Below, piece after piece: positions 11,314 to 33,413 of a DNA stretch of 33,570 bases (its first letter is position 1; every line of letters starts with the position of its first letter). The position numbers and the translations under genes were made by a program. The stretch lies in the NCBI GenBank assembly GCA_963558405.1, contig CAUWGC010000019.1, positions 1-33,570 of the forward strand, given 5' to 3'. This stretch comes from an uncultured Clostridia bacterium. GTDB lineage: Bacteria; Bacillota; Clostridia; TANB77; CAG-508. A model generated the notes under the pieces. That model had not been told where the DNA came from. It worked only from the letters and a program-made list of their open reading frames with translations, and ran no database searches.

Positions 11314-11347
11314 AAAAGGGAGTTGTTTACAAATCAACTCTCTTTTT
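11313..11347. terminator. Bidirectional terminator between tRNA-Leu and the convergent filament locus
   Basis: AAAAAGGGAGTTG...CAACTCTCTTTTT. Confidence 0.75.
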
Positions 11348-11897
11348 ATTTTATAATTTTATTATTTTTACTCTTATTCTTTTTTATTACATAAATAGTT
11401 TGAACTACTATTGAAATGATTATAAATAAAAAAATTAATTTCATTTGCATAACTTTTGCAAAAATACCTAATATTGGAATACTATTTTCTACTTTTCCTA
11501 TTATTTTTTTATTTTCAATTTCTTCAATATTATTATATAAATTATTATCTCCTTTAGTAATAAAATGTACCTTACCATCTATATTACTTATATTATTTAT
11601 TCTTTGTATTTTAATTTGATTATTATATTCATATACAATTATATCGTTTATGTAATATTTGTCATTTTTATTTGCTATAATTAAATCATTTCTTTTTATA
11701 TCAGGATACATCGATTTATCATTATATGTATGTATTGTAATATTCCCAAATCTTATATATTGTTTTTGTGTAAAAAAATTATATATATTGTATATTATAC
11801 TATATATTAGAAGAAATATTATAAATATGTAAAAAGCTATTTTAATTATTCTTTTTAGAAGCTTATATATAATTTCACTTATTCTTCTCTTCTTCAA
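11346..11897 (-). CDS. SipW-like (S26) signal peptidase paralogue, catalytic His replaced
   Basis: TM - KSMYP..NDLII - KIQRI (normally THRV) - TKGDNN..IIGKV - TM; TTG start overlapping the upstream gene. Confidence 0.8.
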   Translation of the reverse strand: MKKRRISEIIYKLLKRIIKIAFYIFIIFLLIYSIIYNIYNFFTQKQYIRFGNITIHTYNDKSMYPDIKRNDLIIANKNDKYYINDIIVYEYNNQIKIQRINNISNIDGKVHFITKGDNNLYNNIEEIENKKIIGKVENSIPILGIFAKVMQMKLIFLFIIISIVVQTIYVIKKNKSKNNKIIK

Positions 11898-12444
11898 TTT
11901 TTCTTTTCATTCTCCTTTTTTCTTTTTTTTCATTTTTTGTTATTGTATATAAGCAAATTAATAAAAAAATGAGCATCATAATTAATAGTATTATTTTATC
12001 CTGCATTTGTTTTGCTAATTTACCCAAATATGGTATTTTTATTATTACTTTTCCTTTTATATTTTCAATTCTTGTTACTTTTTTGTCTTGAGCATTGTTA
12101 TTATCGCCTTTAGTAATATATTCTTTTATTTCATCTTTTTCTACAATATCTATTACTCTATGTGTATTTGTTATTCCTTCCTGTTCAAATGTAATTATAT
12201 CGTCTTTTTCTATATTATCTTGTTTTTTTATTATAATAACATCTCCTATTTTAAGTTCTGGAAACATACTATCTGATGTTATTATATATGCTTGATATCC
12301 TAAAATACCTTTATTATTTTGAATTGAAGTAATCCATAATAAAATTACATTATACAAAATTATTATAAAAAATATTAATATTGTTACCTTTATTATTTTT
12401 GCATATTTTTTTCTTTTTACTATAGAATCTATATCGTATTTCAT
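11875..12444 (-). CDS. SipW-type signal peptidase I (S26), intact dyad
   Basis: SDSMFPELKIGDVII, THRV, TKGDNNN..D, GKV; start reassigned to ATG 12444 (MKYDID), which has RBS AGGAAGG and avoids overlap with the giant gene. Confidence 0.9.
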   Translation of the reverse strand: MKYDIDSIVKRKKYAKIIKVTILIFFIIILYNVILLWITSIQNNKGILGYQAYIITSDSMFPELKIGDVIIIKKQDNIEKDDIITFEQEGITNTHRVIDIVEKDEIKEYITKGDNNNAQDKKVTRIENIKGKVIIKIPYLGKLAKQMQDKIILLIMMLIFLLICLYTITKNEKKEKRRMKRKIEEEKNK

Positions 12445-12502
12445 TTTTACCTTCCTATGTATTAATTTATAATGTAAGACAGGTAGTTTTTCCTGTCTTA
12501 CA

Positions 12503-15500
12503 TTATTTAATAACAAAATTTTCGTAGTCTTCACCTATGTAATTTTCTTCATCATATAATTTATAAACTATTCTATATGTTCCTGTTTTCAGATTATTTT
12601 TTAATGTTAAAAATCTTATACTTTCTCCTGATGGATTTGTTGTTAATATATATTCTTTTTCATTATGTGCTTTAGTTAATAAATCTGATACATATTCAGA
12701 TAAATCTACTAACTCATATTCCATAGAGTAAATTTCTGTATACTTTCTTCTATATAAAGAAACAGTTATTTGTGGTTTTTCTAGTCCAGAAGAATATTCT
12801 AAATGTGTCATAAACGAATTATTTCCATTTAATGTATTCCCTGTTTGACTATCTATTACTTTATAATTGTCTGTTGTATATAGGTTTAATCCAAAAGATG
12901 AATTTATAATTGTTATTTTAACATTTGTTTGTGCCGATGATTCCAATCCGTAGTAAATACCATCTGGAGAACCAAATGATTCTATTTTAATTGTATATGT
13001 TCCTGTTGCCAAAGTTGAATTGTTTTCGGTATTTATCTTTATTCTTGATAAAACATTAGAAACTTTATCTGCAATTTTTATTCTAGTTGTTCCGTCTATT
13101 CTTGGATAATATTTTTGTCCATCTATTTCAAAGTTTATTCCAAATAAACTATCAAGTGCTAATTGATTACCTTTGTTGTCAAAAATGGTAATTTTGATTC
13201 CCATTTTTTGTTCAAAATATTCTGTATCATAAATTGTTTTTGAATCAACTATTTCTTGCTTAAAATCTGTTAGTACATCTAAATCTATCTTTTCTCCTAA
13301 GTATGCAGTATCTTTAATTTCTCCTGATATATCTATTTTTGAGTTCTTATTAGTATATACACTATATACCATAACATCTCTCTGAATTCCAAGTACTCCT
13401 AATAAAGTTTGATTTTTATTATTTCTAAGTTCCATTAATAAACTTTTATTTTCTACATTTTCTGTAATATTAGTTTCCGAGAATTTTATATGGAATATAA
13501 AATTTTCATATAATATATTTTGTTCTTCACTATAGTAACTATTTAGTGCTTGTGTTTCATTGTATTTTTCATCTGTACTTCCCATATAAATAAAATCTGA
13601 TAATCTATATTCAAATTTATTATTCTGTACATCTTCCGCGGTAATATCATAATAATATTCTTTTCCCTCTACCATATCTAACATTACAATTCTTGTATTT
13701 TCTGGAAAAACATAAGGCGTATTATTACTATCTCTTGAAACTAATACCCTATAATCTGTTGAAATATCATTATAATATTTACTATTTGAAAAATCATTTA
13801 AGTATAATGAATAATATGTAGAAAATGCACTTCTTCTTGTAATATTAGTTGTAGTTGATGTAAAAAGTCCATATTCTTCACCAGGTGTTATTGCGGCTTC
13901 ATAATAGTCATCTTGATGTAATGCTGTGGTCATAGTAATATTTATATCTATATATTTTATTTCATAATTTAAATCATCAACTGGTACAAGTGCTTGCAAC
14001 CTTATTTTTACATCACCTAATAATTTTTCAACAGTAATATTGGCAGAGTGATATAAGCAAAAGTTTAATGTTGGTGTAACTGTTGAATTGTCTGATTTAT
14101 AAGTACTATTTCCACTATATGATCCACCTTTTTCTGTTAAGAATATAGTTTCTCCCTGATTTTGCCATCCTCTATTTCCTGTTCCCATGTTTAGTCCAAA
14201 TACGTTATTTGCAATATCTTCATTTGGTGCTATTTTATCTATTTCATCTGGATTAACTAAACTTATTTCTTCATCTAAGCCCGCTGAAAATCCATTTAAA
14301 CTAAATATAGTATTAGGATTTGAAAATCCAACTAATGATAATTCATGTGTACCAAATGTAGCATATTTTGATGCAGATAGAGAAAATTCAAAAACTGTAA
14401 CATCCATTTTTTCTCCTACCATCCAAATATAATATACATCATTTTCTGGGGTAGTTTCTATATATTTCATTTTTATTTTTCCATCTTCATTATAATTAGT
14501 GTAAAATCCATCTATACTTGTATTATGATTTTCCATATGTTGAGCCCTAGCATATGAATTTGATGAAAATGTACCTACATTTGTTATTGTATCTCCATTT
14601 TGATAATTACTATTATATAAACCTGTACTTGTACTTGGATTCATTTTGTTTGTAAATAAACCTAAAAAAATCATTCCATGTACTTGTCCATAAGCAGTAA
14701 CTTGTTCATTTGTTGCTATATTTAAATTTTTTCCTTCTGCCATATATATTCTATTATCTACATTTCTTGTTACAGTATTAGTTTCTTCATTTATTGTAAC
14801 TTCTCCTTTTGTTTCTACATTATTTATATCAACTAAACTATCCAATTCCTTTAATAAATTTGCACCATAATTTAAATAAAATGTTGAATTATTTTTTAAT
14901 TTTACTTTGTCCACTCTACTTAAAGTAAAATATTCATCAGAATATTCATTAGTTCTATCTGTTGCTCCTGATAATGCTATAGCAGAATTACTAACAGTTA
15001 AACAATTTGTTCTTTGAATTGATATATTACTTTTAGGCTTATCTGATGTACCATAATTTTTTATATCAATATAACTTTCACCGCTTGTACTAGATGCATT
15101 TCCAGAACCAAATATACTTCCATCTATATCAAATTTTTCATGCCCTTCTCCATCTATTTGTATATTAATTCCATTTGTTACACTTATAAATGAAAAGTCA
15201 TATATCTCTGAGCCTGATTCATTAGCTTCTCCTCCTCCAAAAACAGTACCTTTTATATATACATTTCCTTTTTCTAAAGAAGGATTGTTTACTGTATTAT
15301 ATCCTACATTGGTGTTTGTTACACCATATACTACTGAAGTATTAGCTCCTCCATATACATTTCCACCAATTGATCCAGAAACAATATTTACAGTACTTAT
15401 AGATTTTTTTTCTTCTTCTGTTCCTGTTGGAGCTTTATTTCCTCCTCCAAATACGCTTTTTACAATATTAGTATCTTTACCATCAATTGTTAGATTTGTA

Positions 15501-18500
15501 TTTCCATATACTACTGCTGTACTTCCATTTCCACCAGAGTATAAACTATTTCCTAATTTTGAATTTTTAACATGCACATATGTATTTCCTTGGACTACAC
15601 CTTCATTTCCTCCACCATATACATTTTGCATTACTTCTGCATTTTCTATGGTTAGATTAGTATCGGTATTTACTCCTGCTCTATTTCCACCACCATATAC
15701 GCTTCCACTTACAGTTCCATTTATAATTACTTTTGTATAATTGGTTGTTGCTTGATCTCCTCCACCATATACATTTGTTATATTACCTGAAGTAATTGTA
15801 ACATTTGAATTTGTTGTACTACCTCCTTGATTATTTCCACCATATACATTTTGAGCTGTTCCATTATTGGTTATAACATAACTATTATCTACTGTACCCG
15901 AAGTGTTAGAACCACCAAATATGTTTTCAGCAGTTGCACCATCCAAATTGATATTTGATGTATTTACATTTGCTGCATAACCACCACCATAAATTGCTGG
16001 AATTGTATTATCAGATTTTTGTAATTTTATATTGCTGGTTTGAGAATCAGCTTTATTTCCTCCTCCATATATTGCAGTTAATATTTTTCCTCCATTTACA
16101 TTTATATTTGTTGTAATAGTGGTTCCACCCATATTGTTTCCGCCATACACATTTTCAATATTACCAGCTGTTATTTGTACATTACTTTGATTTATTATTC
16201 CATCTGTATTAGAGCCACCATATACATTTTGAGCATTTCCACCTTGACAATATATATTTGGATTTAGAACAGCTGCCATATTTCCTCCTCCAAATATATT
16301 TGGAATGAAGTTACTTGATTTAATTAAATAGATTTCTGCATTTTCTGTGTCTACTTTGTTTCCTCCTCCATATACTGCAGATGTAATCTCTCCTCCATTT
16401 ATGGTTATTTTCGCTTGTTTTGTAGTTCCACCTATATTATTTCCGCCATAAATAGTTTCTGCACTTCCTGATATAGATTCTATATTACTATTTTGTACTG
16501 TACCTGTTTGATTAGATCCACCGTATATGTTAGATGTATTTCCTCCTTTTATATATACATTAGTTGTATTAACACTAGCGGAATTTCCACCTGCATATAT
16601 TTCTTTTGTATAGCCTCCATTTATATTAATGTTTGATGTAGTTGCATTAGCTCTATCTCCACCACCAAATATTCTGTTGTTAGTACCACCATTAATAATA
16701 ATATTAGTACTTCCTTCAACAATTCCAACGTTGCCTCCTCCATATATGTCTCCAGTATGATTTCCTCCTGTTATATTTATATTAGTTGTTCCTTCTGTTT
16801 TAGCAATGTTGCCTCCTCCGTATATATTAGAGTTAACATCGCTTGCAACAACAATATTTGATATACCTTTTAATTTTGCCATATTATCAAATCCAGAAAT
16901 ACCAGCTCCTGCACCAAATACTTGTCCATTTATTTTTGGATTACCTTCTATTCTTATGTTAGAATTACCTTCCATTTGGGCTAAATTTGGTTTGTTAGAA
17001 TAATTATATCCACATCCTGAAGCATATATATTTCCATTTATTGTTGCTGAACCAGAAATTAGTATATTACTATCTCCATATAGAGAACCACCATCATTAG
17101 CTGTAACATTAGAATTTAAATACTCTGTATAACCATATCCTCCTCCATATATATTTCCTTGTACTTCTCCACCATATACATTTATATTTACAGAAGTTTC
17201 AAATGATTGCCCATAATTTTTGAACTTATCGGAAGAATTGACACTATATCCTGTTACGCCACCAGCTCCTGCTCCATAAATATTTCCAGTTATTCTGCCA
17301 GATGTTATATTTACAGTTATTGTTCCATAAAAATATGAATCACAAATATTTCCTGTCTCATTTTGGTTTACATTTCCATTATTATCAATTACTCCCATGT
17401 TTCTTCCTAAACATCCACCATATAATTCTGCTATTGTTCCTCCTGTTATATTTATGGTTGTTGTACCTAAAAATGTGTTGTTTGGATAATTCCATGGTTT
17501 AGGATCCCACCAACTTCCTTCTGTTGGTATGTTTTGTGAATCACCTATACTTCCTCCTAGCACACGTCCAACCATTCCATTTTTTATATTTTCTGTAACT
17601 CTGGAATAATTATTTCCACATGCAGAACCTCCAGTTAATAAATTAACATCATAATCATATCTTGAATGATCTGTTGTACTGTTTTTTATGTCTATAGTTA
17701 TATCAACTTTAAAACTGTCTTCCATTGATGAACCCATAAAATCATGTGAAGTTGTTTGACCTTGACCACTTGCTGTACCTGGACTTCCACCACCTATAAT
17801 TCTTGCATATGTACCACTTTTTATAAGTATTTCTGAATTGTTTCTAGGTAATTTAGTATAATTATATTGTAACCATCCACATATAATATGAAAAGCTGGT
17901 GCTCTTCCACCTAATAAACCCTGATTTTGGTTTGAATTTGCATAACTTGTCATAGTTATGCCTTCGCCCATTGTTAAACTATATCCTTGTAAATAAAAAT
18001 ATAATTGATTGTTTCCACCATAAAAATCTAAATATTGAAATGTAGTATCTGCTGTAAGATATCTATATGAATTTGTACCACCATAAAAATATAATGTTGA
18101 ATCATAATCTATTCCACCATAGATTCCTGTTATTGTTGCTTTTTTATTATATGTTGAACTTGAATTAGAGTTAAAGAAACTTGTGTTATCATATGTTCCC
18201 ATAATTACAATAATATTTTGACTTACGTCATAATTACTATTTAATTTACTATATGCTGTACTTATAGTTTCTACTGCAGTTTGAGGCGTGTATCCATCAT
18301 TATAATCATTTCCATTATTATAATCAACGTAAATAACTTTTCTGTCTCCATATATAAAAGATCCTTCAACGTTTAACGTATAATTTGAGTTATTTGTTGC
18401 AATTAATTTATATTCTTGTCCTCTTTTTAAATTTTCTAAAGTTAAAGATGTAGCATTTTCTATAGTTTCTTGTGATATTCCCGCAATGTCTACACTATAC

Positions 18501-20953
18501 CATTGATATGTATAATCCTCTAAATTTATAAATGGTAAAGCTTCTCCTGCTAGTTTTGCTGTAACTTTGTTACTTTGTTCATTTATATTAAACTCTATAT
18601 ATAACGAATATCTTTTAACTGTAAATTTTAAAATTGAATAATATCTTCCATCACCTATAATAACCGTATAATTATAATCTGTTTCCCAATCTTGTTCTTT
18701 TACAACTTGATTTTTATTTTCTAATTCACTTACTATTTTATCATCTAGATACCATGTATATGTGTATGGTCCTCCAGAATATTGGTTTTCAACTTCAATC
18801 TTATATGTAGGTTTGTTAGAGTCATTTAAATATGTTGTAAATCTTGGAATAAATGAAAATGTTCCATTTTCAAATTTCCACTTAACAAATTGATTATTAT
18901 CCAAATTATTAAAATCTGATAATAATGTAGATATATTTGATATATATATTCCTTTATTTACACCTTGTACATAACCTATTTCTCTGGTTGAATTTGACAA
19001 TCTTCTTGTAGATGTTCCAGATTCTACAGTTGCATTAAATGCAGTACCATTTGCAGAAAAACTATTATAATGACTTGTCATTGTTAATTCTCCTGCATCA
19101 TTTCCATTCCATAAAGTACTATAATTATTTCTATTATTATAACTTGTAGAAGCAATAAGTGCACCAAATATTGGACCTATAAATCCATTTGAATTTATTG
19201 TTCCAATATACAAACATCCTTTAGGCCACACTTGTTGTGAATGTATTGTAGCAATTATTCCTCCTGTATGATATTGTGCATCATATGTATTAGTTCCAAA
19301 CCAACTTCTTCTTACTTCGTTTGTTAAGTTTATATTTGTATTTACAAAACAATTTTCTATAGAATATCTACTGCTTGCACCTGGATCTGATGTACTACCT
19401 TCTGTATTCATAGCATATCCTACTAATCCACCAACAGCATATTGAAATGATTCATTATAGATTGTAACATTTCCATTATCTGTTATACTACTATTCTTTA
19501 CTATATTATTTATTATTTGCGTATTCTTATATATTGTTCCTGCTAATATTCCTACATGAATTCCTTTATTATTACTGTTTGAAGAAGTATTTCCGCTTCC
19601 TCCAATTGAAATAGTTATATTTTCTATTTCTAAGTTCTTAATAATAGATTTTGTATTTCCACCACCAATACTTCCAAAAATTCCATATGATTCTATTGTA
19701 TTTTGTGGCATTGAATTAATATTTAATCTTGCATTATATATAATGTGTCCTGCTCCATCAAATATTCCTCTAAAAGAATTAGCATTATTTCCAATTGGTG
19801 TCCATATTTTTTGATTTAAATTTATATCATTACAAAGTTGAAAATAAGTATCACTATACATATTTCCAGAATTTACTTGCTGTGCCAAATATGCCAGTTC
19901 ATCACCACTTGATATTAAATATGGTTTTTCTATTGTACCATTACCATATTTAAATCCTTGCGCTATTTCCCCTTCCCAAGGAATAGCATTAGAATTCATT
20001 TTTCCACTTGCAAAATAGTTTATAAGTTCTTTTTCTGGAGTTTCTGACAAAACCGCATATACAGAAAATTGATTTGCATTAAATTCTATATCTTCATTGC
20101 TTTTATTTACATTTTTTACTTCTTTTGCCTCTTTTTCATCTATATGCACAACTCTATATGTATCATTATCATTTTTTGAAGTTATCTTTTTTATTGTAAC
20201 CTTTATATTCTCTCCATATTTTTGAGGTTGATATTCTTGTTTTTGATGCATTATTTTGATATCATAAGCAATTTTAAAATTAATATTATTCGCCAAAAAT
20301 TGATTTATTTCTTCTTGAATATCTTCTTCTTTTACCTCTGAAATTTCAATATTAGATTCAAAAGGCATATATCCTTCTAACTGTATAATATTTTCTTTAT
20401 TTTCAATTTTTATTGTTTTATTATATAAAATTTCACCATTTTTTTCTTTTTTATCATATTTAACACTAATATCTAAATTTTTGTTTTTTAAATCTTTTTC
20501 TGTTATATAAAATTTTTTTCCTGGCTTTATTATTTCTTCTTTACTACTATTTACCGAATTTTCTATAGTTGAATTAGCATTTACACTGGATGTTTCTTGC
20601 ATGTTAGTACTATTTGCATTGTTTACATCATTTGTATTATTTACTTTGTTACTTATTGTATTATTACTTATTTCATTACTATTTTTAATATTATCACTTT
20701 TTGAACTAGTTGTTACATAATATTCTATAATTTTAGTTTCATTAATGTATTCAGGTAATTCTATATAGTATCTACCATCTTCACTTGTTGCACTCCACTC
20801 TTCTTCTATTGTATCGATAATTTTATCTTTATCTATAATTTGAGTCTTAATATTTATTATCTTACTAGCTCTTGAATTATTAAATGCTATTATTTCAATT
20901 ATTAATAATAATAATATTATTATTGAAATTATTATCCTTTTTTTATTTTTCAT
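12503..20953 (-). CDS. Giant (2816 aa) secreted beta-helical adhesin-like protein
   Basis: Signal/TM N-terminus; GLUG-type region (GNGTIEKPYLISSGDELAYLA, FRGIFDGAGH, VGGLVG); Ig-like YTYTWY/YTYQWY modules; IYVDYNNGNDYNDG beta-helix cap; about 30 (I/V)(Y/F)GGx repeats; beta-rich C-terminus with no LPXTG, SLH or TM segment. Confidence 0.85.
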   Translation of the reverse strand: MKNKKRIIISIIILLLLIIEIIAFNNSRASKIINIKTQIIDKDKIIDTIEEEWSATSEDGRYYIELPEYINETKIIEYYVTTSSKSDNIKNSNEISNNTISNKVNNTNDVNNANSTNMQETSSVNANSTIENSVNSSKEEIIKPGKKFYITEKDLKNKNLDISVKYDKKEKNGEILYNKTIKIENKENIIQLEGYMPFESNIEISEVKEEDIQEEINQFLANNINFKIAYDIKIMHQKQEYQPQKYGENIKVTIKKITSKNDNDTYRVVHIDEKEAKEVKNVNKSNEDIEFNANQFSVYAVLSETPEKELINYFASGKMNSNAIPWEGEIAQGFKYGNGTIEKPYLISSGDELAYLAQQVNSGNMYSDTYFQLCNDINLNQKIWTPIGNNANSFRGIFDGAGHIIYNARLNINSMPQNTIESYGIFGSIGGGNTKSIIKNLEIENITISIGGSGNTSSNSNNKGIHVGILAGTIYKNTQIINNIVKNSSITDNGNVTIYNESFQYAVGGLVGYAMNTEGSTSDPGASSRYSIENCFVNTNINLTNEVRRSWFGTNTYDAQYHTGGIIATIHSQQVWPKGCLYIGTINSNGFIGPIFGALIASTSYNNRNNYSTLWNGNDAGELTMTSHYNSFSANGTAFNATVESGTSTRRLSNSTREIGYVQGVNKGIYISNISTLLSDFNNLDNNQFVKWKFENGTFSFIPRFTTYLNDSNKPTYKIEVENQYSGGPYTYTWYLDDKIVSELENKNQVVKEQDWETDYNYTVIIGDGRYYSILKFTVKRYSLYIEFNINEQSNKVTAKLAGEALPFINLEDYTYQWYSVDIAGISQETIENATSLTLENLKRGQEYKLIATNNSNYTLNVEGSFIYGDRKVIYVDYNNGNDYNDGYTPQTAVETISTAYSKLNSNYDVSQNIIVIMGTYDNTSFFNSNSSSTYNKKATITGIYGGIDYDSTLYFYGGTNSYRYLTADTTFQYLDFYGGNNQLYFYLQGYSLTMGEGITMTSYANSNQNQGLLGGRAPAFHIICGWLQYNYTKLPRNNSEILIKSGTYARIIGGGSPGTASGQGQTTSHDFMGSSMEDSFKVDITIDIKNSTTDHSRYDYDVNLLTGGSACGNNYSRVTENIKNGMVGRVLGGSIGDSQNIPTEGSWWDPKPWNYPNNTFLGTTTINITGGTIAELYGGCLGRNMGVIDNNGNVNQNETGNICDSYFYGTITVNITSGRITGNIYGAGAGGVTGYSVNSSDKFKNYGQSFETSVNINVYGGEVQGNIYGGGYGYTEYLNSNVTANDGGSLYGDSNILISGSATINGNIYASGCGYNYSNKPNLAQMEGNSNIRIEGNPKINGQVFGAGAGISGFDNMAKLKGISNIVVASDVNSNIYGGGNIAKTEGTTNINITGGNHTGDIYGGGNVGIVEGSTNIIINGGTNNRIFGGGDRANATTSNININGGYTKEIYAGGNSASVNTTNVYIKGGNTSNIYGGSNQTGTVQNSNIESISGSAETIYGGNNIGGTTKQAKITINGGEITSAVYGGGNKVDTENAEIYLIKSSNFIPNIFGGGNMAAVLNPNIYCQGGNAQNVYGGSNTDGIINQSNVQITAGNIENVYGGNNMGGTTITTNINVNGGKILTAIYGGGNKADSQTSNIKLQKSDNTIPAIYGGGYAANVNTSNINLDGATAENIFGGSNTSGTVDNSYVITNNGTAQNVYGGNNQGGSTTNSNVTITSGNITNVYGGGDQATTNYTKVIINGTVSGSVYGGGNRAGVNTDTNLTIENAEVMQNVYGGGNEGVVQGNTYVHVKNSKLGNSLYSGGNGSTAVVYGNTNLTIDGKDTNIVKSVFGGGNKAPTGTEEEKKSISTVNIVSGSIGGNVYGGANTSVVYGVTNTNVGYNTVNNPSLEKGNVYIKGTVFGGGEANESGSEIYDFSFISVTNGINIQIDGEGHEKFDIDGSIFGSGNASSTSGESYIDIKNYGTSDKPKSNISIQRTNCLTVSNSAIALSGATDRTNEYSDEYFTLSRVDKVKLKNNSTFYLNYGANLLKELDSLVDINNVETKGEVTINEETNTVTRNVDNRIYMAEGKNLNIATNEQVTAYGQVHGMIFLGLFTNKMNPSTSTGLYNSNYQNGDTITNVGTFSSNSYARAQHMENHNTSIDGFYTNYNEDGKIKMKYIETTPENDVYYIWMVGEKMDVTVFEFSLSASKYATFGTHELSLVGFSNPNTIFSLNGFSAGLDEEISLVNPDEIDKIAPNEDIANNVFGLNMGTGNRGWQNQGETIFLTEKGGSYSGNSTYKSDNSTVTPTLNFCLYHSANITVEKLLGDVKIRLQALVPVDDLNYEIKYIDINITMTTALHQDDYYEAAITPGEEYGLFTSTTTNITRRSAFSTYYSLYLNDFSNSKYYNDISTDYRVLVSRDSNNTPYVFPENTRIVMLDMVEGKEYYYDITAEDVQNNKFEYRLSDFIYMGSTDEKYNETQALNSYYSEEQNILYENFIFHIKFSETNITENVENKSLLMELRNNKNQTLLGVLGIQRDVMVYSVYTNKNSKIDISGEIKDTAYLGEKIDLDVLTDFKQEIVDSKTIYDTEYFEQKMGIKITIFDNKGNQLALDSLFGINFEIDGQKYYPRIDGTTRIKIADKVSNVLSRIKINTENNSTLATGTYTIKIESFGSPDGIYYGLESSAQTNVKITIINSSFGLNLYTTDNYKVIDSQTGNTLNGNNSFMTHLEYSSGLEKPQITVSLYRRKYTEIYSMEYELVDLSEYVSDLLTKAHNEKEYILTTNPSGESIRFLTLKNNLKTGTYRIVYKLYDEENYIGEDYENFVIK
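15090..17810 (-). repeat. Array of about 30 ~25-aa (I/V)(Y/F)GG(G/S/N)N protein repeats within the giant adhesin
   Basis: Counted by eye in the translation; boundaries approximate. Confidence 0.85.
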
Positions 20954-23739: not shown

Positions 23740-23773
23740 TTTATCCTCCCGTTTTTTTATTTTTACAGACATA

Positions 23774-23854: not shown

Positions 23855-23857
23855 ATA

Positions 23858-25271: not shown

Positions 25272-25277
25272 TTATAC

Positions 25278-25310
25278 TAAAGTGGATAATATTTTATACT
25301 ATCCACTTTA
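25278..25310. terminator. Bidirectional terminator between convergent pilin genes
   Basis: TAAAGTGGATA-11 nt-TATCCACTTTA. Confidence 0.75.
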
Positions 25311-25910: not shown

Positions 25911-26521
25911 TTATTTGGCTCACTTATATTTTCTTGCTCTTCAGATTCTTTTTCTTCTTTTATTTCTTGTCTTCTAAGAATAAAATCAACAATAATTTTT
26001 GCAACAATAATAGCCATAGGTACAATAATTAAAAAATAGAATGCATATAAGTTTCTAGTTATTTTATTAATAAAACTTAAAATAACTGACTTATAAATTA
26101 CTTTTCCATATATTTGGCTGTCATCAATCTCAGGATCTGCAGTATCGTTTGCAATACCTTTTGTTATAAATTTATATTTTTCGTTTTCTTGTCTTTTTTC
26201 TATAACTTGATGTGTAATAATAATATTGTTTAAATCTCCTTTTTTAGCTTTGTATGTGATGTCATCTCCAACATTAATTTCGCTTGCATCAATTTCCTTT
26301 GAAATTATAATATCTCCAATTTCATATTTAGGAATCATACTACCTGTAACTACACTAAAAATTCTCATTCCACCTATTGTTATATTATTATTAGAAAATC
26401 TTTGTATGCAAACAACAATTAGAATAGATAATACTAACAAAAAACATATTGTATATATAATATTTCCTATAATTTTAAAAACTTTATTATTAATTATTTT
26501 TTTTAACATAACTATTATCAA
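25883..26521 (-). CDS. SipW-type signal peptidase I (S26), Ser/His present
   Basis: VTGSMIPKYEIGDII, THQV, TKGIAN..D, YGKV; two TMs; TTG start overlapping the upstream TGA; ends just after an A10 run. Confidence 0.88.
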   Translation of the reverse strand: MIIVMLKKIINNKVFKIIGNIIYTICFLLVLSILIVVCIQRFSNNNITIGGMRIFSVVTGSMIPKYEIGDIIISKEIDASEINVGDDITYKAKKGDLNNIIITHQVIEKRQENEKYKFITKGIANDTADPEIDDSQIYGKVIYKSVILSFINKITRNLYAFYFLIIVPMAIIVAKIIVDFILRRQEIKEEKESEEQENISEPNKDIKKKEQY

Positions 26522-27633
26522 TCATTTATCCTTTCTAAATATTGATCTATGTGTTTACTAAAAATCATTTGTATTTCTTGCATTGTAGCCATTTTTTTGT
26601 ATTTTATCATTGAATACTTATTTCCAATCATTTCTTTTAATTGCTCTTCTGTTAATGAACTATCCAAATCCATAATTTTATCTAACATTTGATCTACAAT
26701 ATTTTCTTTTAATTTATTTGTTATTTCTTCATTTTCTGCTTGATCCTTATTTAGAGTATTTACAACTAAGTAATTAAGCAAAAAAGTTTCATCTGCTAAT
26801 TTTTTTAAATCTCCATTGTCTAAATAATCACTTTTTTCTGATATATTTTGAGTTTTATCATCAAAATTATCCTGTATGTAATTCCATAACTTTACAGCAT
26901 ATTGAAAATTTACATTTTTTAATACCACGTTTGTCTTTTTTATTGGAGGTCTTATTAAACTTATATGTTTTTTTTCTAATATTTTATATACTTCTGAGCT
27001 AGTTAAATCATTTATTTTTTGTTCTACCCTTATAATTCTTTCCAAAATATTATCTTCACTTTTATCTTTAGTATTATTAACTTTGGTTTTAATACTAAAA
27101 CTCATTTCTATATCTTCATCAGAGTAATTAGTTTTACCATTGTACTCTATTTGCTTATCATTTTTAAATTCACATTCTTCTATTGAATTTAAGTTTTTCT
27201 TTTTTTGATTTATAAAAGCTTTCATATTTTGAATTAAAGTATATATTAATTTATTTTCATATGTATCATAACTTTCTTCTTTGTTTATGTTTAATATTTT
27301 GGATGGTCTAACATCACCAGTTTTTTTATCAATATCTTGTATCAAATTTGTATTTTTAGAAAGGTGCTTTATGCTATCAACAGTGATTTTTCTTGCTAAT
27401 TCAATTTTTACAATATCTTCTTCATTAACTATAAACCTATTGGGATTTCTAAGAATATTATCTATGTATGGTATAGTTTCTTCAAACATTCTTATCCATT
27501 CGGTATCTTTTATTGTTTTTTCATAGTCTGTAACAACTCTAACAGATGAATTTGTATTATTTACAAACTCACTTTTTAATTTTTCTGAAGTCTTATCGTA
27601 CAATTCTATTATTTTAAAATCTTCCATAATCAT
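26518..27633 (-). CDS. DUF2357 / McrC N-terminal-like protein with no recognisable PD-(D/E)xK nuclease motif
   Basis: ILRNPNRFI, ARKI..DSIKHL, PSKILN, SYDTYENKLI signature; directly downstream of an McrB-like gene. Confidence 0.7.
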   Translation of the reverse strand: MIMEDFKIIELYDKTSEKLKSEFVNNTNSSVRVVTDYEKTIKDTEWIRMFEETIPYIDNILRNPNRFIVNEEDIVKIELARKITVDSIKHLSKNTNLIQDIDKKTGDVRPSKILNINKEESYDTYENKLIYTLIQNMKAFINQKKKNLNSIEECEFKNDKQIEYNGKTNYSDEDIEMSFSIKTKVNNTKDKSEDNILERIIRVEQKINDLTSSEVYKILEKKHISLIRPPIKKTNVVLKNVNFQYAVKLWNYIQDNFDDKTQNISEKSDYLDNGDLKKLADETFLLNYLVVNTLNKDQAENEEITNKLKENIVDQMLDKIMDLDSSLTEEQLKEMIGNKYSMIKYKKMATMQEIQMIFSKHIDQYLERIND

Positions 27634-27638
27634 CTTCC

Positions 27639-29165
27639 TTATGTTAATTTTTTAAGTCTTAATAGATATTCTTTGCATTCTTTCATTTTATCTTTTCCAA
27701 ATGTAGTATCTAAAAAATCTATATAAGGATCTATTTCATCCCTTATATATGATATATTTAATTGTTCAAATTTTCTTAATATTTTTTTTGCAATAAAGTA
27801 ATCAACTCCTGCTACTTCGTCTCCACCACATGCTACAAATACTGGCACAAATTTTTTCATATGAGAAACAATACGGTTACCAAATGCTATTCTAAAATGT
27901 CTTATTACATAGTCGTCCATTTGCTCTATTTTATTTAAAGTATCATCTGATATTGGATTTTCTTCCATTGCATTTGTAAATAGCTTGTCTATATAACTAT
28001 AATTAATATCCATTGCTTCCTTTTCTATTGGTTTAAATACTTTTCCCTTGTCATTAATATCTATTGGCATTGCTCTATCATATACTTTATCTGTTACCAT
28101 AAATGTAGAATCGTCATTATTTATTGTTCCTATATACCACATATTTGCAGGAATTTTTAATTTTCCGCCTTTTATATTTTTAGGATCGCTTTTCCAACTG
28201 TTTGGTACTAATTCAATAACCCATTCTTCTTTATTAGGCATTTCCAATATAGATAGCATTTCTGCAAAATAATACTCAACACGCGAAATATTCATCTCAT
28301 CTAAAATTACTGTATATATATCATCAGTATATCCTGCCATATACATTTCTTTTAATACATCTGTTTCGTTAAATTTTTTTGTAAATTCATTAAAATATCC
28401 AAAAAGTTCGGTTCTATCTCTCCATGATGGCTGAACTGAAGCAACGCAAGAATCGTGTTTTAAAAACTTTCCCCAAGCATATGCAAGAGATGTTTTACCA
28501 GTACCAGAAATACCTTGTAATATTACTAGTTTAGTTGATGCTAAAGCTGAAATAAATAATCTCATCATATCAATTGAATAATATAATTTTAATTTTGATG
28601 CTGCAAAGTTTCTAAAATTTTCACATAATTCAGGTAATGTAAAATTATTTTCATAATTTTTAATTTTGTATTCACTAAATTCCTCATCTATAGAATTTAA
28701 TTTTGCAAATCTTATTCCTGTATTACCATCTTCTTGAGTATCTTTTGTATCATTTAAGTCTTCCTCAGCGCTTTCACCTGGTTTTAATCCAAGTTGTGAG
28801 ACTTTCATTGCTAAAATCTCATCTTTTTCCTTCATTAAATTTGCTATTTTTCCATTTAAAGTAGCTACTTCTTCTAATAATTCGTCTTGTTCTATTGCTG
28901 TTTTTCTAAATCTTAGATACTTTCTTAATAACAAATATATAAGTGCTATAACTAATACAACAAGTACAATTAAACATGTTATAGCTATTATTACTAAAAT
29001 CCACTCTGGCATAGTTAAATCATTTTTGTAATTTTGTAATATTTCTTGATATCTATTTATATTAAATATTTGTACAATTCCATCCCCAATTCCCTTTAAA
29101 ATTGTATATATTCCTAAAAAAAATTGAGAAAGAAATTCATATAAAAATCTTGTAAATGTTTCCAT
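27639..29165 (-). CDS. Membrane-anchored McrB-like AAA+ NTPase
   Basis: N-terminal hydrophobic helices + coiled coil; Walker A GISGTGKTS, VQPSWRDRTELFGY, Walker B ILDEMNISRVEYYFA, McrB signature GTINNDDST, DKVYDRA. Confidence 0.88.
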   Translation of the reverse strand: METFTRFLYEFLSQFFLGIYTILKGIGDGIVQIFNINRYQEILQNYKNDLTMPEWILVIIAITCLIVLVVLVIALIYLLLRKYLRFRKTAIEQDELLEEVATLNGKIANLMKEKDEILAMKVSQLGLKPGESAEEDLNDTKDTQEDGNTGIRFAKLNSIDEEFSEYKIKNYENNFTLPELCENFRNFAASKLKLYYSIDMMRLFISALASTKLVILQGISGTGKTSLAYAWGKFLKHDSCVASVQPSWRDRTELFGYFNEFTKKFNETDVLKEMYMAGYTDDIYTVILDEMNISRVEYYFAEMLSILEMPNKEEWVIELVPNSWKSDPKNIKGGKLKIPANMWYIGTINNDDSTFMVTDKVYDRAMPIDINDKGKVFKPIEKEAMDINYSYIDKLFTNAMEENPISDDTLNKIEQMDDYVIRHFRIAFGNRIVSHMKKFVPVFVACGGDEVAGVDYFIAKKILRKFEQLNISYIRDEIDPYIDFLDTTFGKDKMKECKEYLLRLKKLT

Positions 29166-29177
29166 GTTTTACCTCAT

Positions 29178-30182
29178 TTATATTTCTATTATATTTTTAA
29201 GTATATTTTTGTTTTTTATTATTTCACTATAATTATCTAAATTTTTATTAATTAGTATATAACTGAACATATTAAGTTTTTCTAGATTTATATAATTTAC
29301 TTCAAATGAATTATCTAAAATAATAGCTATTTTAAACCCGCTTCTCATCAACTCATAAATTTGTTCTTTGTTTTCATCGTAATCTTTATACTTTAATTTT
29401 AAATTTATTTTATCTTGTACAGCCTGATGTTCTATAATGTTTAATATTCCTTTTATTTTTTTATTTTTTTCTAACAGTGTTTTGGCAAATTCCACAATAT
29501 ACTGTTTCTTAAAATCTTGTTTTAAAATATCTCTTATAATCTTTACTGTAATTAAATAATATTCTATATACAACTTGTCTTCATTTATTATTCCATTATT
29601 AAAAACCTTATTTATTGCTATTTCACTAAATATCATTGGAAATTTTATATGTTGTTCTAAATTTACTCTATATACATTTTTAATACCTCTATAATTTGAT
29701 ATTTTTAAATTAAATTCTTTTGATTCAAATTTATTAAGAAACTTATTTTTTTCTTCATTCCATTCATTTAATATGTTAAATAAATTTATTTTAAATTCTT
29801 CATCTTTTTTATTTAATACTTTTATTCTTAATTTGTATATATTTTCCACTTGATTTTTTATTTCTTGTTTTTTTATAACATCATCAAAATACATTATATA
29901 CAAAAAGAAAATTCCCATATTATTTATAATCTGTTTTTTTTCATTATAATTTTCTATAAGATAATCTGTTTTTGATTTAAGTGAGTATATTATTTTTTTT
30001 CTTAATGTTAGGTTTGAATCTAAATCTTCTTTAAAAAAATTATTATATCTAACATTTACATATGTATATAAATAACTGTCACATATTTCTTTATCATATT
30101 TGTATTCAAAAACTAATTTCATATATTTAGTTATATATTTTTTTGTTATTTCTATATATTTATTCATCAAATTAATCGTCAT
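29178..30182 (-). CDS. Hypothetical cytoplasmic protein with degenerate EAL-like C-terminal region
   Basis: KINLKL...IYELMRSGFKIAIILDNSF resembles EAL LxxxGxxIAIDDFG but lacks the ExL and DDFG motifs; RBS AAAGGAG. Confidence 0.6.
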   Translation of the reverse strand: MTINLMNKYIEITKKYITKYMKLVFEYKYDKEICDSYLYTYVNVRYNNFFKEDLDSNLTLRKKIIYSLKSKTDYLIENYNEKKQIINNMGIFFLYIMYFDDVIKKQEIKNQVENIYKLRIKVLNKKDEEFKINLFNILNEWNEEKNKFLNKFESKEFNLKISNYRGIKNVYRVNLEQHIKFPMIFSEIAINKVFNNGIINEDKLYIEYYLITVKIIRDILKQDFKKQYIVEFAKTLLEKNKKIKGILNIIEHQAVQDKINLKLKYKDYDENKEQIYELMRSGFKIAIILDNSFEVNYINLEKLNMFSYILINKNLDNYSEIIKNKNILKNIIEI

Positions 30183-30198
30183 TTATAATTTTGCTCCT

Positions 30199-31147
30199 TT
30201 ATGTTATATTTACTTCTATTATAGAAACTGTATTTTTATCTGGGTACGTATAATCTTTTGTTTTATCGTTTTTATAAAATCTAATATTTTTACTTGACAA
30301 AGCATCTATTCCAATTGTTATTTCATTCACATAATAATATCCGATTAATTCTTGTAGTTTTTTGATTAATAGCATTTATGTAATTTTTATCTGTCATATC
30401 TATTCTTACTTTTTTAGGATCAAACTTTAGAGTAATTTCTCCAGAATAACATTTTGCTTTATTTTCCTCAGATAAGTTTAAATAAACATTTACATCTATC
30501 CTTTGTCCCTTTTTGTATGATTCAAATGGTTCTTTTACAATATAATATGACTGTGTATTTGTTATATTTAACTCTAAATATGCTCGGTTTACTTTATCTT
30601 CAATTTCATACGTTATATTTTCTTTTCCAACAACTAATTTAAATTCAGCTCTTAATTCCTTAGTATATTCTCCATTAGATTTAGCTATAATTTCAATCCA
30701 CGCAATATCTCCGTTATTCATTACTGCATTTGGTGTTATTCTTAATGAAAAAGTATCAGAATTTGATTTTGCATCTATTATCCCACTTGTTTTACTTAAT
30801 TGACATATTACATTATTTGAACAATTGTATGTTATATCATATCCAATATCATAACTTGCACTTTTTAAATTATTTTTCAGACTATTCATATTTATAGTTA
30901 TATTATAATCTTCTACTCCAGACCAATTATTAATTTGATATATTTCACCATCTTCTTTTAATTTGTCACTATAAAAGTAAAATTCTTTACTTTCCATAAT
31001 AAAATTATTAAAACTTTTTGTTATATATCTTCCTAACACTGATAATATTGATATAAATATTACTGCTATTATAAAAACAACTGCTATTATTTTTAATTTT
31101 AATATGAAAATATTTTGTTTTTTATGCTTAATCCTATGGTTTATCAT
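30199..31147 (-). CDS. Pilin-type secreted protein with a +1 frameshift near 30343; about 315 aa if restored (track ORF 30323..31147)
   Basis: TM-VLG/RY signal; beta-rich body; +1 frame continues GYYYVNEITIGIDALSSKNIRFYK...IIEVNIT to TAA at 30199, which abuts the next RBS. Confidence 0.75.
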
Positions 31148-31162
31148 GCTATACCTCCGATA

Positions 31163-31744
31163 TTAGGATTCCTCTACAATCTGTTTTGCATCTATTTTTA
31201 TTTCTACCACTTCTAATATATCTTGATACTGGTTAGAATTATATGATTCTGGAAAGTATACTACAAGTGTATATGTATTAATACCTTGTACCGAATGTTT
31301 GAATATTTGTTTTTGTGTTTTTATTGTTCTAAAATATGTTCCATCTTTATCTTTTTCTATAATATCATCTGTTTCTATTGTACTTGCATTTTCATTTTGA
31401 TAGTCTTCATTTAAATATAATTTATAATCTAATGGCAAGTTTGTAGTAGTTTTTATATTTAAATCGTATTCAATATCTGTTTGTGCTATTTTATCTTCTT
31501 TTTCATTAGATACCGTAAATCTGTATACATATGGTTCTTTTCTTGGAACAATTTTGCCTAGATTTAAGGTCATTGATTGAAAATCTGTATTTAATACATA
31601 AAATGCTATATCTATATTAGCATTAGAACTAGAACTACTTTCGTATTTTGATAAAGTCAATGTATAAATTTGTACAACAATTATAAAACATAGGATTAAT
31701 ATTACAAATTTTATGTACAATCTTACATTTCTTTTATTTATCAC
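31163..31744 (-). CDS. TasA/CalY-like pilin-type protein with SipW-type signal peptide
   Basis: TM-TLS/KYES; IVP, YRFTVSN, TDIEYDL, terminal beta strand IDAKQ; RBS GGAGG. Confidence 0.75.
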   Translation of the reverse strand: MINKRNVRLYIKFVILILCFIIVVQIYTLTLSKYESSSSSNANIDIAFYVLNTDFQSMTLNLGKIVPRKEPYVYRFTVSNEKEDKIAQTDIEYDLNIKTTTNLPLDYKLYLNEDYQNENASTIETDDIIEKDKDGTYFRTIKTQKQIFKHSVQGINTYTLVVYFPESYNSNQYQDILEVVEIKIDAKQIVEES

Positions 31745-31746
31745 TA

Positions 31747-32253
31747 CTATCCTCCATTTTCTTTTGGTTTGTATATAATTGCAATTCCTATTAGTATCAT
31801 AGTAATAATTATTGGTATTAATACTGATGGAGATTTTAAAACCTTTTTTAGTATTTTTATGTTTTTAAATACTTTAACAACTTTTCCTACAACATATTCC
31901 TTACCAATAGGTTCATCATTTGTATTATTAGCATCGCCTTTTGTTATAATTTTATTATTTTCAATTTCTATTACCCTATGAGTTATATAAGATTCATATT
32001 TTTTATATACAATTATATCATTTGTTTTTATTTGTTTTGTAATTTTTACAATTATAATATCTCCAATATCTAAAGTTCCTGACATACTGCCTGTTGCAAC
32101 TTCAAAAAAAGTATATCCAAATACATTTACATACTTTTTGTCTAAGATTTTTATTTGTATATTATAATATATTGTAAATATTAATATTAAAATTGCTATA
32201 CCTACAAAAATATTTAGTATAAATTCTAATATCATATTTATAACTTTTTTCAT
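31747..32253 (-). CDS. SipW-type signal peptidase I (S26), intact dyad
   Basis: ATGSMSGTLDIGDII, ITHRV, TKGDANNTND, VVGKV; two TMs. Confidence 0.9.
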   Translation of the reverse strand: MKKVINMILEFILNIFVGIAILILIFTIYYNIQIKILDKKYVNVFGYTFFEVATGSMSGTLDIGDIIIVKITKQIKTNDIIVYKKYESYITHRVIEIENNKIITKGDANNTNDEPIGKEYVVGKVVKVFKNIKILKKVLKSPSVLIPIIITMILIGIAIIYKPKENGG

Positions 32254-32261
32254 TTTTACTC

Positions 32262-32885
32262 CTAGTTTCTTATTTCATTTGTTAATGGCTTTATTTCTTC
32301 TCCTAAATATTGGGTAACTTTTATATTTACTGGTATTGAGATTTTATTGTCTGGAATTGAACCCAATTGTGTATCTTCTACATTTGTAGTTTCATCTTCA
32401 TTCCATATAACAGTAATTGCAATATTATTTTTTATTCCCTTTTTTATTTCATCTAAATTTATAATTCCTGTATATACATTGTTATTGGTTAATATTAATT
32501 CGTTATTTGTTTCAATTTCTTTTATTGATGAAATTTTAATTTTTGTTTTTTCAAGTTCAGATAAGTCAAAAGAAATTTCATATTTTATTGAAACATCTGT
32601 ATTTTTAGGATCAATTACTATATTAAAATCACCAGATAAACCAGGTGCTAATTTTCCTTGTTCACTTTTATTACTTTGTCCTACATTTATATGGTCAATT
32701 ACAAAATCTTCATTAATTCCTGAAGAAATATTAGTATTATTTACATTTATTATCCATTTTGCATTTTCTACTTTTACATTACCAGAAACATTACTTTCAA
32801 AAATTGCATATGTATCCACCAATTTATATATAGTAAATATTAGCATTAATATTGAAATAAATACTATAAATAATTTTTTATTCAT
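32262..32885 (-). CDS. TasA/CalY-like pilin-type protein with SipW-type signal peptide
   Basis: TM-DTYA/IFES, AKWIINVN, LAPGLSG, TDVSIKY, VIW..DT.LG, VTQY. Confidence 0.8.
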   Translation of the reverse strand: MNKKLFIVFISILMLIFTIYKLVDTYAIFESNVSGNVKVENAKWIINVNNTNISSGINEDFVIDHINVGQSNKSEQGKLAPGLSGDFNIVIDPKNTDVSIKYEISFDLSELEKTKIKISSIKEIETNNELILTNNNVYTGIINLDEIKKGIKNNIAITVIWNEDETTNVEDTQLGSIPDNKISIPVNIKVTQYLGEEIKPLTNEIRN

Positions 32886-32888
32886 TTT

Positions 32889-33413
32889 TTATTCCTTTGT
32901 TTCGACTTTTTTATTTTCTTTTATTTCTGCAACAACAATATATATTTCATAAATGAACGCAATTAGCGATGGGAAAACTATTAAAAATAAAAATCCCCAC
33001 TTTGATTCTAATATACCTAGTATAGTTCCTATTTTACTTATTCTACTTGCACTATCTATTGGACCAATTAAATATTTGCTAGATATTTGGGTGTCTCCAT
33101 TAATTGTATAAATAGTATTTAAACTATTTGACTTTTCCATATTTGTAACTTCACCTAAAGTTATTTCCACTTTATTTAACTCTTTATTATAAAATAATAT
33201 TTTGTCACCTGTTTCTATTTTATCTTTTTTATTTAAAATAGCTATATCACCTTTTTTAAAATATGGTTCTACCTCATTGCTATCTATTATTATTAATGTA
33301 GAATTTCCAAATTCACTTACTTTGTAGTCATTATATGATAATAAACAAATGGTAACCAATACTGCTATAATTGCATATATTGCAAATACTACATTTCCAA
33401 TAATTCTTTTCAT
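32889..33413 (-). CDS. Degenerate SipW-like membrane protein (no catalytic Ser/His)
   Basis: Same architecture (TM, xxPxFKKGD, GD.I.F, IG, IGTIL..L.S..GF TM) but SNEVEP instead of GSMxP and no HR; RBS AAGGAGG. Confidence 0.7.
   Translation of the reverse strand: MKRIIGNVVFAIYAIIAVLVTICLLSYNDYKVSEFGNSTLIIIDSNEVEPYFKKGDIAILNKKDKIETGDKILFYNKELNKVEITLGEVTNMEKSNSLNTIYTINGDTQISSKYLIGPIDSASRISKIGTILGILESKWGFLFLIVFPSLIAFIYEIYIVVAEIKENKKVETKE

Follow-up and report, generated by a model that had tools for sequence, protein, structure and literature searches.

The window examined here, a contig of 33,570 nucleotides (CAUWGC010000019.1, assembly GCA_963558405.1), comes from an uncultured Clostridia bacterium with a genome of 1.58 Mb and about 25% G+C. 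It carries a locus of 17 genes in which an McrBC pair with no recognizable nuclease is flanked by SipW-type signal peptidases and by a family of secreted paralogues. The McrBC of textbooks is a restriction enzyme; in this locus its GTPase and activator, apparently minus the nuclease, are built into a secretion and surface-protein operon. Such operons occur in uncultured Bacillota with small genomes, at least 532 of them counted at the species level. We consider it somewhat better than an even bet that the whole represents a CoCoPALM system (Bell et al., 2024) exporting, trimming, and probably polymerizing subunits under the control of the GTPase and of a protein with an EAL fold.

A conserved cluster around an McrBC-like pair

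The 17 genes follow one another nearly without gaps from position 33413 down to 11346, and 16 of them lie on the minus strand (Table 1, which keeps the gene order). Twelve nucleotides separate x334 from the TM-McrB gene and 5 nt separate the latter from the DUF2357 gene, which overlaps sipC by 4 nt. Membrane or exported proteins are encoded by 13/17 genes.

Conservation of this arrangement was surveyed by scanning one genome per species, which gave at least 600 pattern matches, at least 532 of them confirmed. Eighty loci of other species were kept, many of which end at contig edges. The DUF2357 gene comes directly after the McrB gene in 80/80 loci, and sipC adjoins DUF2357 in 79/80. The other genes present were p160 (73 loci), p274 (70), p197 (65), sipA (64), p338 (55), GIANT (51), p243 (48, a count limited by contig ends), and cc516 (23, always beside the GIANT gene). 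x334 was found in 67/80 loci, and in a further 9 its position is occupied by a divergent 351-aa protein. Some loci lack the p207-sipB-p193 cassette, the GIANT/sipD/sipE module lies on either side of the core, and flanking genes vary from locus to locus. Per-gene identity across the 80 loci was highest for the GTPase (64–82%) and 24–66% for every other gene, a contrast consistent with an engine in the cytoplasm that is under constraint and surface parts that evolve quickly.

Among 60 other relatives, the GTPase was present at 69–82% identity in seven, all of the same family (7/36, against 0/24 in the other families of the order), and the whole gene set was syntenic in 8/8 loci of those seven genomes. 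A wider draw recovered it in 59/400 other genomes of the family and in 22/50 genera, with a patchy distribution within genera; it was absent from the one congener searched. No full-length match was found in 400 phylum-wide genomes, 52 of which had a match to the GTPase domain only. Sixteen of the best of these domain-only matches served as a control set. None of them had a peptidase or subunit gene within about 9 kb (0/16) or a transmembrane (TM) segment (0/16), and 9/16 had a large DUF2357 partner (690–890 aa).

These data bear directly on whether the neighbors met by chance, that is, whether an McrBC-like island was inserted into an unrelated cluster of sipW and secreted-protein genes. McrBC pairs are mobile and common, which would make such an event conceivable. 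However, the fixed order is kept, with gaps of −4 to 12 nt, among GTPases up to 36% different and amid changing flanks, and the control relatives have no peptidase nearby, so that we give chance insertion a negligible probability. The locus is one conserved operon-like cluster, not a chance adjacency. McrB/DUF2357 occurs with sipW and subunit genes far beyond this genome, in line with the initial annotation of the window, which had read them as parts of a single system.

The record titles of carriers point to human, rumen, and other animal-gut samples. The names in NCBI titles (Clostridia, Bacilli, Tenericutes, Erysipelotrichaceae) were rejected as proof of a spread beyond one GTDB family, being only labels of uncultured bins. 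Some genomes of 1.2–2.0 Mb hold two full copies of the system, as in one relative (G021, contigs C46 and C37), and two full-length matches each were found in G179 and G405. Paired GTPase copies differ from each other, with 78% and 74% identity to the GTPase of the window.

Three motifs of TM-McrB are invariant in 8/8, namely INNDD, the Walker A motif GISGTGKTS, and the Walker B motif LDEMN, and the hydrophobic N-terminus is conserved. Its best match among PDB sequences is McrB (E 1.2e-3), with no Pfam match at E ≤ 0.01. The INNDD motif aligns as N-N-D-D to N-x-D-E in 16/16 distant relatives; the NxD call comes from this family alignment, since a gap-free HMMER alignment to Escherichia coli McrB would read NxxD. 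A TM window at residues 55–80 precedes heptad-like sequence at 93–125 (by eye). As read from the basic residues after the TM segment, the GTPase is expected on the cytoplasmic side, and no more than a short loop would be exposed to the exterior. The McrC-like protein matches Pfam DUF2357 over residues 27–153 (E 3e-12, 46.7 bits against a cut-off of 23.3). In a PDB profile search, the sole match of its C-terminal 120 residues was to a helical protein of artificial design, and the invariant columns showed no D-ExK pattern. Neither a PD-(D/E)xK nuclease in this protein nor a DNA-binding N-domain in McrB was detected with Pfam, NCBIfam, PADLOC, or the PDB profile. The pair shares with the McrBC type IV restriction enzyme an AAA+ GTPase with an McrB-type signature and a DUF2357 gene immediately downstream, but differs from it in showing no sign of these two domains, in the NxD instead of the NxxD signature, and in being membrane-tethered.

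Such proteins have been given a name. Bell et al. (2024; eLife, PMC11090510) gave the name CoCoPALM to systems in which an NxD-type McrB is fused to a TM segment and a coiled coil and has members of the signal peptidase family encoded in its vicinity. In their definition the signature is NxD, not NxxD, and is usually followed by D or E; the N-terminal domain of the GTPase is termed FtsB-like, and the McrC homologue (DUF2357) usually has a coiled coil and often no nuclease (PMC11090510). The present locus fits this definition, as here too an NxD-type McrB GTPase with an N-terminal TM segment and heptad-like, probably coiled-coil sequence is encoded with a DUF2357/McrC partner that shows no nuclease signature and with signal peptidases in one operon. 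CoCoPALM is treated there in one paragraph, its analysis being left to “a separate, forthcoming publication”, and the main text on it makes no mention of secreted paralogues, a pseudo-peptidase, an EAL-fold protein, or a giant protein, which the supplements may list (PMC11090510). Literature searches for CoCoPALM, for McrB with pilus and signal peptidase, and for McrBC with pilus and coiled coil returned only Bell et al. (2024) and its preprint, and a search for SipW, TasA, and McrB together returned no description. The initial annotation knew of no description of this combination. In that respect it was not borne out, as the type was named in 2024 (PMC11090510), with no analysis since in the literature searched; its view of one conserved multi-gene system with a shared signal end and an EAL fold holds. 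New here are the distinction between seemingly active and degenerate peptidases, the likeness of the degenerate EAL domain to the receptor domains of LapD and FimX, and the rank of the GTPase as the most conserved gene by far. Together with the shared signal motif, the anchor, and the EAL-fold protein, they make up a parts list with which the system is directly testable.

The ancestry of the GTPase lends some weight to a role in conflict or defense, where an McrBC-derived module would sense infection or foreign nucleic acid, as proposed for its relatives, and the secreted proteins would act as effectors or as a surface barrier. TM-McrB falls in the NxD branch of McrB that holds the CoCoNuT systems and matches PADLOC PDC-M26A (E 5.6e-34); the patchy accessory distribution and the two copies in several genomes point the same way. 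However, the PADLOC match covers the GTPase core only, no nuclease, DNA- or RNA-binding domain, or methyltransferase was detected in the locus with Pfam, NCBIfam, PADLOC, or the PDB profile, and membrane or exported proteins make up most of its products. There is also precedent for McrB-family proteins outside defense: PcdA of Staphylococcus aureus is an McrB-family NTPase (nucleoside triphosphatase) co-opted from restriction to division, a cell-envelope process (PMC10602043). Defense is, in our judgment, decidedly improbable as the function of the locus.

PcdA and the term FtsB-like raise another alternative, a matrix linked to the septum. The TM segment and coiled coil would direct the GTPase to the divisome, and the secreted subunits would be deposited as a structure during division, in the manner of archaeal cannulae. 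This would agree with the name given to the N-terminal domain by Bell et al. (PMC11090510), with PcdA being a division protein (PMC10602043), with a weak Pfam FtsL_2 match (E 0.057), and with the appearance of cannulae among the four best structural matches of p338 (see below). Yet the FtsL_2 match is far under its cut-off (13.8 against 24.6 bits), and homology of the GTPase N-terminus to FtsB/FtsL is unproven. Moreover, the coiled coil of FtsB is outside the cell and the one here must be inside with the GTPase, and the locus is accessory, not universal. Unlike TM-McrB, PcdA contains EVE domains, lacks both a TM segment and an McrC partner, and works together with FtsZ and DivIVA (PMC10602043). 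We regard a division-linked role as very unlikely.

Signal peptidases and secreted subunits

Four of the five SipW-like proteins score above the cut-off (51.85 bits) of TIGR02228, the archaeal-type signal peptidase I family (sipD 86.9, sipC 82.6, sipB 72.2, and sipE 58.8 bits), and sipA falls below it at 25.6 bits. None of the five reaches the 190-bit cut-off of NF046067, the Bacillus SipW equivalog, against which sipD scores 95.5 bits. Profile-profile comparison of sipA with sipC gave 99.2%. The columns of the catalytic Ser and His were placed according to work on Bacillus subtilis SipW. Ser, His, and Asp are kept in 28/28 sipB and in 13/13 sipD orthologues. In sipC orthologues Ser and His are each kept in 71/71, with D in the Asp column in only 2/71. 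The corresponding counts for Ser and His are 4/65 and 0/65 in sipA orthologues and 3/8 and 1/8 in sipE orthologues. By these residues only three of the five peptidase types (sipB, sipC, and sipD) look active. With its catalytic residues lost, sipA is a conserved pseudo-enzyme, and its two membrane segments and strongly conserved C-terminal motif make it a candidate scaffold. The idea that SipW-like enzymes act as sortase-like polymerases was dropped, because in a signal peptidase it is the signal peptide, and not the mature chain, that is bound in the acyl-enzyme. A sixth SipW-type peptidase domain is found elsewhere in the genome (C18:29771-30121), inside a 395-aa open frame, and has the best score of all (98.3 bits).

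The likely substrates are encoded alongside. Six families of secreted proteins share a signal end of the form T-[YF]-[AG] (S in some copies of the window) followed by x-[FY], with column conservation of 80–99%, and F or Y occupies P2' in 6/6 cleavable precursors of the window. An aromatic P2' has been reported to make TasA a poor LepB substrate and a client of SipW (PMC10269814). The SipW-type signals proposed in the initial annotation are borne out to this extent. The seventh candidate subunit, p243, should stay anchored, as it has no small residue at position −1.

Deep profile comparison (hhalign) identified p160, p193, p197, and p207 as full-length paralogues (95.5–100%), with p207 matching p197 at 100%, p160 at 97.5% over 187 columns, and p193 at 97.5% over 168 columns. 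Both p274 and p338 are linked to these small subunits through their N-terminal 77–91 columns, the first 91 columns of p274 matching p193 at 95.5%, and p243 matches p338 at 89% over 35 C-terminal columns that hold the WIEG.D.DC motif. As controls, the unrelated x334 gave at most 0.5%, sipA at most 19%, and sipC up to 53% over short stretches. The p338 family has 3065 homologues, with none named or carrying a Pfam domain among the 120 listed, and the small-subunit family searched with p197 has 3483 cluster representatives at E ≤ 0.001.

Known families did not account for these proteins. At E ≤ 0.01, none of the seven candidate subunits matched Pfam or NCBIfam, including TIGR04088, the NCBIfam family of SipW-dependent signal peptides, and profiles run against PDB sequences gave nothing useful for p338 or the small subunits. 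Pfam matches of 55 small-subunit members were scattered and sub-threshold, among them DUF5024 (11/55, best E 7.8e-4), and no family explaining the domain was found by Pfam in 10 longer or lower-ranked HMMER relatives.

The AlphaFold2 model of p338, the only one of the seven subunit families modeled, is a beta-sandwich with a mean confidence (pLDDT) of 77.5. In a search of 48,161 chains its four best matches were an archaeal Sulfolobus thread (Z 5.7), the TasA fiber (5.5), the CS17 pilus (5.2), and Pyrodictium cannulae (5.1), all of them donor-strand fiber subunits; FimA scored 5.0–5.6 in a second comparison. The model aligned to the TasA fiber (8aur) with Z 5.5–5.6 and a root-mean-square deviation (rmsd) of 4.1–4.2 over 135–138 residues, and to the TasA crystal structure (5of1) with Z 4.4; the Foldseek E-value was 9e-3. 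The fold class of p338 as a donor-strand fiber subunit is best called suggestive. The label “TasA-like” used in the initial annotation found no sequence support, as Peptidase_M73 was not matched.

The locus resembles the Bacillus tapA-sipW-tasA and sipW-tasA-calY systems in having a dedicated archaeal-type signal peptidase beside its substrates, in the aromatic P2' of the latter, and in a beta-sandwich subunit, the modeled p338, with weak structural likeness to TasA. It differs from them in its five peptidase paralogues (two degenerate) instead of one, and in its seven subunit families without a Peptidase_M73 match. Assembly of Bacillus TasA needs no NTPase, whereas a cytoplasmic GTPase module is encoded here.

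The starts of two subunit genes deserve comment. For p160 there is no ATG, GTG, or TTG upstream of the signal (25790-25910, minus strand); the frame opens inside the end of sipC, offers only ATA or ATT as start codons, and reads ...LLVFNTYA/WF, and orthologues of 199–209 aa have ordinary starts. The explanation may be an assembly error, translational coupling, or the use of a rare start codon. In p338, translation from the first ATG would give 11 extra residues that are missing from nearly all homologues, so the true start is probably the second Met, at about position 23739. Just upstream of this Met lies a TTGACA-17-TATTTT site with a TG, in a window where the whole promoter scan was at chance level.

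The EAL-fold protein and models of assembly

The protein encoded just upstream of TM-McrB, x334, gave a confident AlphaFold2 model (pLDDT 94.2). In the search of 48,161 chains its top 24 matches were all EAL domains (Z 9.8–13.3), the next fold being at Z 7.3. The best were LapD (3pjt, Z 13.3, rmsd 3.0, 165 residues aligned) and FimX (4foj, Z 13.1), and Foldseek returned EAL matches at probability 1.0. No Pfam EAL match (PF00563) was obtained at E ≤ 10, the EAL, DDFG, and KxD positions are not conserved in a 56-sequence consensus (by eye), and profile comparison with PDB sequences gave only chance-level helical matches. Residues 154–334 are thus an EAL fold, degenerate in sequence and akin to the receptor domains of LapD and FimX, and the EAL-like call of the initial annotation was right at the level of the fold. 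The genome encodes three GGDEF proteins and one EAL protein. The 351-aa protein that takes the place of x334 in nine loci (the L087-L102 group, e.g., L090:8943-9998) has no BLAST link to x334 and belongs to no Pfam family; it could be x334 in a strongly diverged form or a replacement for it.

Two known circuits place a degenerate EAL-fold domain in comparable company: in FimX-PilZ-PilB it is encoded beside an assembly NTPase, and in LapD-LapG-LapA beside a protease and a giant adhesin. Compared with both, the locus has no GGDEF, PilZ, HAMP, or periplasmic domain, and its NTPase and protease belong to different families.

The Lap circuit suggests an inside-out control in which an EAL-like receptor and the TM-anchored GTPase, instead of building a fiber, decide whether the peptidases cut the anchors of the giant protein and its partners, so that surface proteins would be kept or shed according to cyclic di-GMP (c-di-GMP). 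LapD as best structural match of x334 speaks for it, as does an N-terminally anchored giant protein whose gene overlaps the first of two consecutive peptidase genes, which in turn overlap one another. The pseudo-peptidase sipA could then be a decoy or holder, and a GTPase with, on our reading, no more than a short loop on the outer side of the membrane would also be compatible. On the other hand, GIANT is found at variable positions and in 51/80 loci, whereas the small secreted paralogues are core; six paralogous substrates exceed the needs of a release switch, and the Z-score of LapD is within 1 of those of catalytic EAL domains. A Lap-like switch appears unlikely to us on this balance.

We instead favor a CoCoPALM system that builds a surface fiber. 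Sec would export the subunits, and SipB, SipC, and SipD would cut them after T-[YF]-[AGS], freeing an N-terminal strand of alternating hydrophobic residues. The beta-sandwich subunits would then polymerize by strand donation into a fiber rooted by the uncleaved p243 anchor; the giant beta-helix protein may be borne by this fiber or occur alongside it. The GTPase, predicted to face the cytoplasm with an outside loop of at most about 18 residues, would act through its conserved membrane segments on a complex of peptidase and SipA, since only that short loop lies outside, and would gate or drive processing and assembly. The EAL-like protein would be a regulator of the GTPase and might sense c-di-GMP as a receptor, much as FimX serves the ATPase of type IV pili. 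Polymerization, the role of the GTPase, and c-di-GMP sensing are the steps that we infer. Such a fiber may have the major, minor, anchor, and tip subunits that the initial annotation proposed.

Several observations weigh against this scheme. Peptidase_M73 (PF12389) was matched neither by the seven subunits (E ≤ 0.01) nor by 55 small-subunit members (E ≤ 1), and the whole genome has no match to it at E ≤ 1, in a test whose control does match in B. subtilis; nor does any subunit match another family by sequence in Pfam, NCBIfam, or the PDB. The Z-scores of 5–6 for p338 are below the level of a trustworthy fold match and hardly exceed those of unrelated beta-sandwiches; carbohydrate-binding modules of sialidases score 5.1. 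The EAL sequence signature is missing from x334, whose hhalign comparison with the EAL protein of the same genome gave a non-significant probability of 0.2%, so that c-di-GMP binding is a guess. The GTPase family lies within the McrBC defense clade, the PADLOC match being to a candidate defense protein. Finally, an energized step would be without precedent, since the known TasA, AbpA, and thread fibers need no NTPase (PMC9245690).

A bolder version of the fiber model, tentative and in our opinion rather doubtful, would make the TM-McrB/McrC pair, gated by the EAL-fold protein, a GTP-driven membrane machine that couples signal-peptide cleavage by a complex of SipW and pseudo-SipW proteins to the insertion of subunits, in order, where a strand-exchange fiber is rooted. 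If true, no earlier case would be known of a Sec/SipW-type (TasA-like) pilus assembled with the help of an NTPase, and the motor of a restriction enzyme would have been re-used for the biogenesis of surface structures in gut Bacillota. In more general terms, if the GTPase acts on fiber assembly, an energized route would be added to a class of pili thought to self-assemble, with a handle on adhesion in organisms that are not yet growable.

Gene inventory and genomic surroundings

Coordinates and features of the 17 genes are collected in Table 1. The inventory made in the initial annotation was accurate: five SipW-like genes in some 22 kb, six SipW-type signal ends (the second TYA/WF, in a 160-aa frame, being only upstream of the first ATG, GTG, or TTG), a membrane-anchored paralogue with an N-terminal TM segment, an intact open reading frame of 2816 aa, and adjoining genes for the TM-McrB GTPase, the DUF2357 protein, and the EAL-like protein, whose motifs, family, and fold, respectively, were confirmed.

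Table 1. Genes of the CoCoPALM-type locus, in gene order, with positions in the window.
Gene	Position	Strand	Features
sipA	32889..33413	-	SipW-like pseudo-peptidase (by catalytic residues); N- and C-terminal TM segments, conserved LESKWGFL motif
p207	32262..32885	-	Predicted secreted small subunit, 207 aa; signal end TYA/IF
sipB	31747..32253	-	SipW-type signal peptidase; catalytic Ser/His/Asp kept
p193	31163..31744	-	Predicted secreted small subunit, 193 aa; signal end TLS/KY
p274	30323..31147	-	Predicted secreted protein, 274 aa; signal end VLG/RY; core gene directly upstream of the cytoplasmic module
x334	29178..30182	-	Predicted cytoplasmic, 334 aa; helical N-domain (1-152), degenerate EAL-fold domain (154-334)
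TM-McrB	27639..29165	-	508 aa; N-terminal hydrophobic segment, TM (about 55-80), coiled coil (by eye), acidic linker, NxD-type McrB-like AAA+ GTPase
McrC-like protein	26518..27633	-	371 aa; DUF2357 N-domain and helical C-terminal part
sipC	25883..26521	-	SipW-type signal peptidase; core peptidase of the system
p160	25308..25889	-	Predicted secreted small subunit; signal end TYA/WF; frame open from 25910
p197	24678..25271	+	Predicted secreted small subunit, 197 aa; signal end TYS/KY; sole plus-strand gene
p243	23858..24589	-	Membrane-anchored paralogue, 243 aa; predicted uncleavable signal anchor; C-terminal WIEG.D.DC motif as in p338
p338	22756..23772	-	Largest predicted secreted subunit, 338 aa; signal end TYA/WF, within invariant S.YAWF..N; candidate major subunit
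cc516	20982..22532	-	Predicted cytoplasmic Lys/Glu-rich accessory protein; coiled coil by eye
GIANT	12503..20953	-	Predicted surface protein, 2816 aa; N-terminal signal, long GG[ND]-type repeats (beta-helix by eye)
sipD	11875..12534	-	SipW-type signal peptidase; overlaps GIANT end by 32 nt
sipE	11346..11897	-	Degenerate SipW-like protein; Ser kept here, His to Gln

The largest product, GIANT, has no match in Pfam, NCBIfam, or the PDB. In the ESM Atlas it gave only leads below 0.9, to GLUG/M26_N clusters at 0.83–0.85, and its tandem repeats amount to one trivial array. Its neighbor cc516 has no signal sequence and no family in Pfam, NCBIfam, or PADLOC.

The opposite-strand orientation of p197 is conserved in 65/80 loci. 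Its usual place is after p160, with which it is convergent, and it is divergent from p243; one locus (L062) has an extra copy on the same strand. A gene for a 316-aa protein without signal sequence or Pfam family lies upstream of sipA in 17 loci (e.g., L023:4641-5591, minus strand), about 5 kb upstream of the GTPase gene, and is on the opposite strand in 15/17 of them. Its presence here is not visible, as only 157 nt of sequence remain between sipA and the upstream end of the contig.

Housekeeping genes occupy the remainder of the window (1-11088); a family scan identified Ham1, two ABC exporters, YgjP, an RNA methyltransferase, TPM, and LemA. A promoter scan of the window was at chance level (117 found against 120 expected), and no terminator was found. 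Nearly identical DNA occurs in 19 runs of 11 studies labeled as animal gut or bovine metagenomes, among which the source sample may be. In one pig metatranscriptome run, only 7% of the sampled words were present.

No sortase, PilB/PilC, or prepilin peptidase family was matched among the open reading frames of the window that were scanned, as the initial annotation had also noted. Other contigs of the same genome gave 10 sortase matches and two T2SSE-type ATPase matches above the cut-off. With these 10 sortase-domain matches, spread over contigs C14, C17, C1, C8, C5, C6, C2, and C24, and a PilB/PilT-like pair on contig C10, the organism has unusually many surface-structure genes for a genome of 1.58 Mb.

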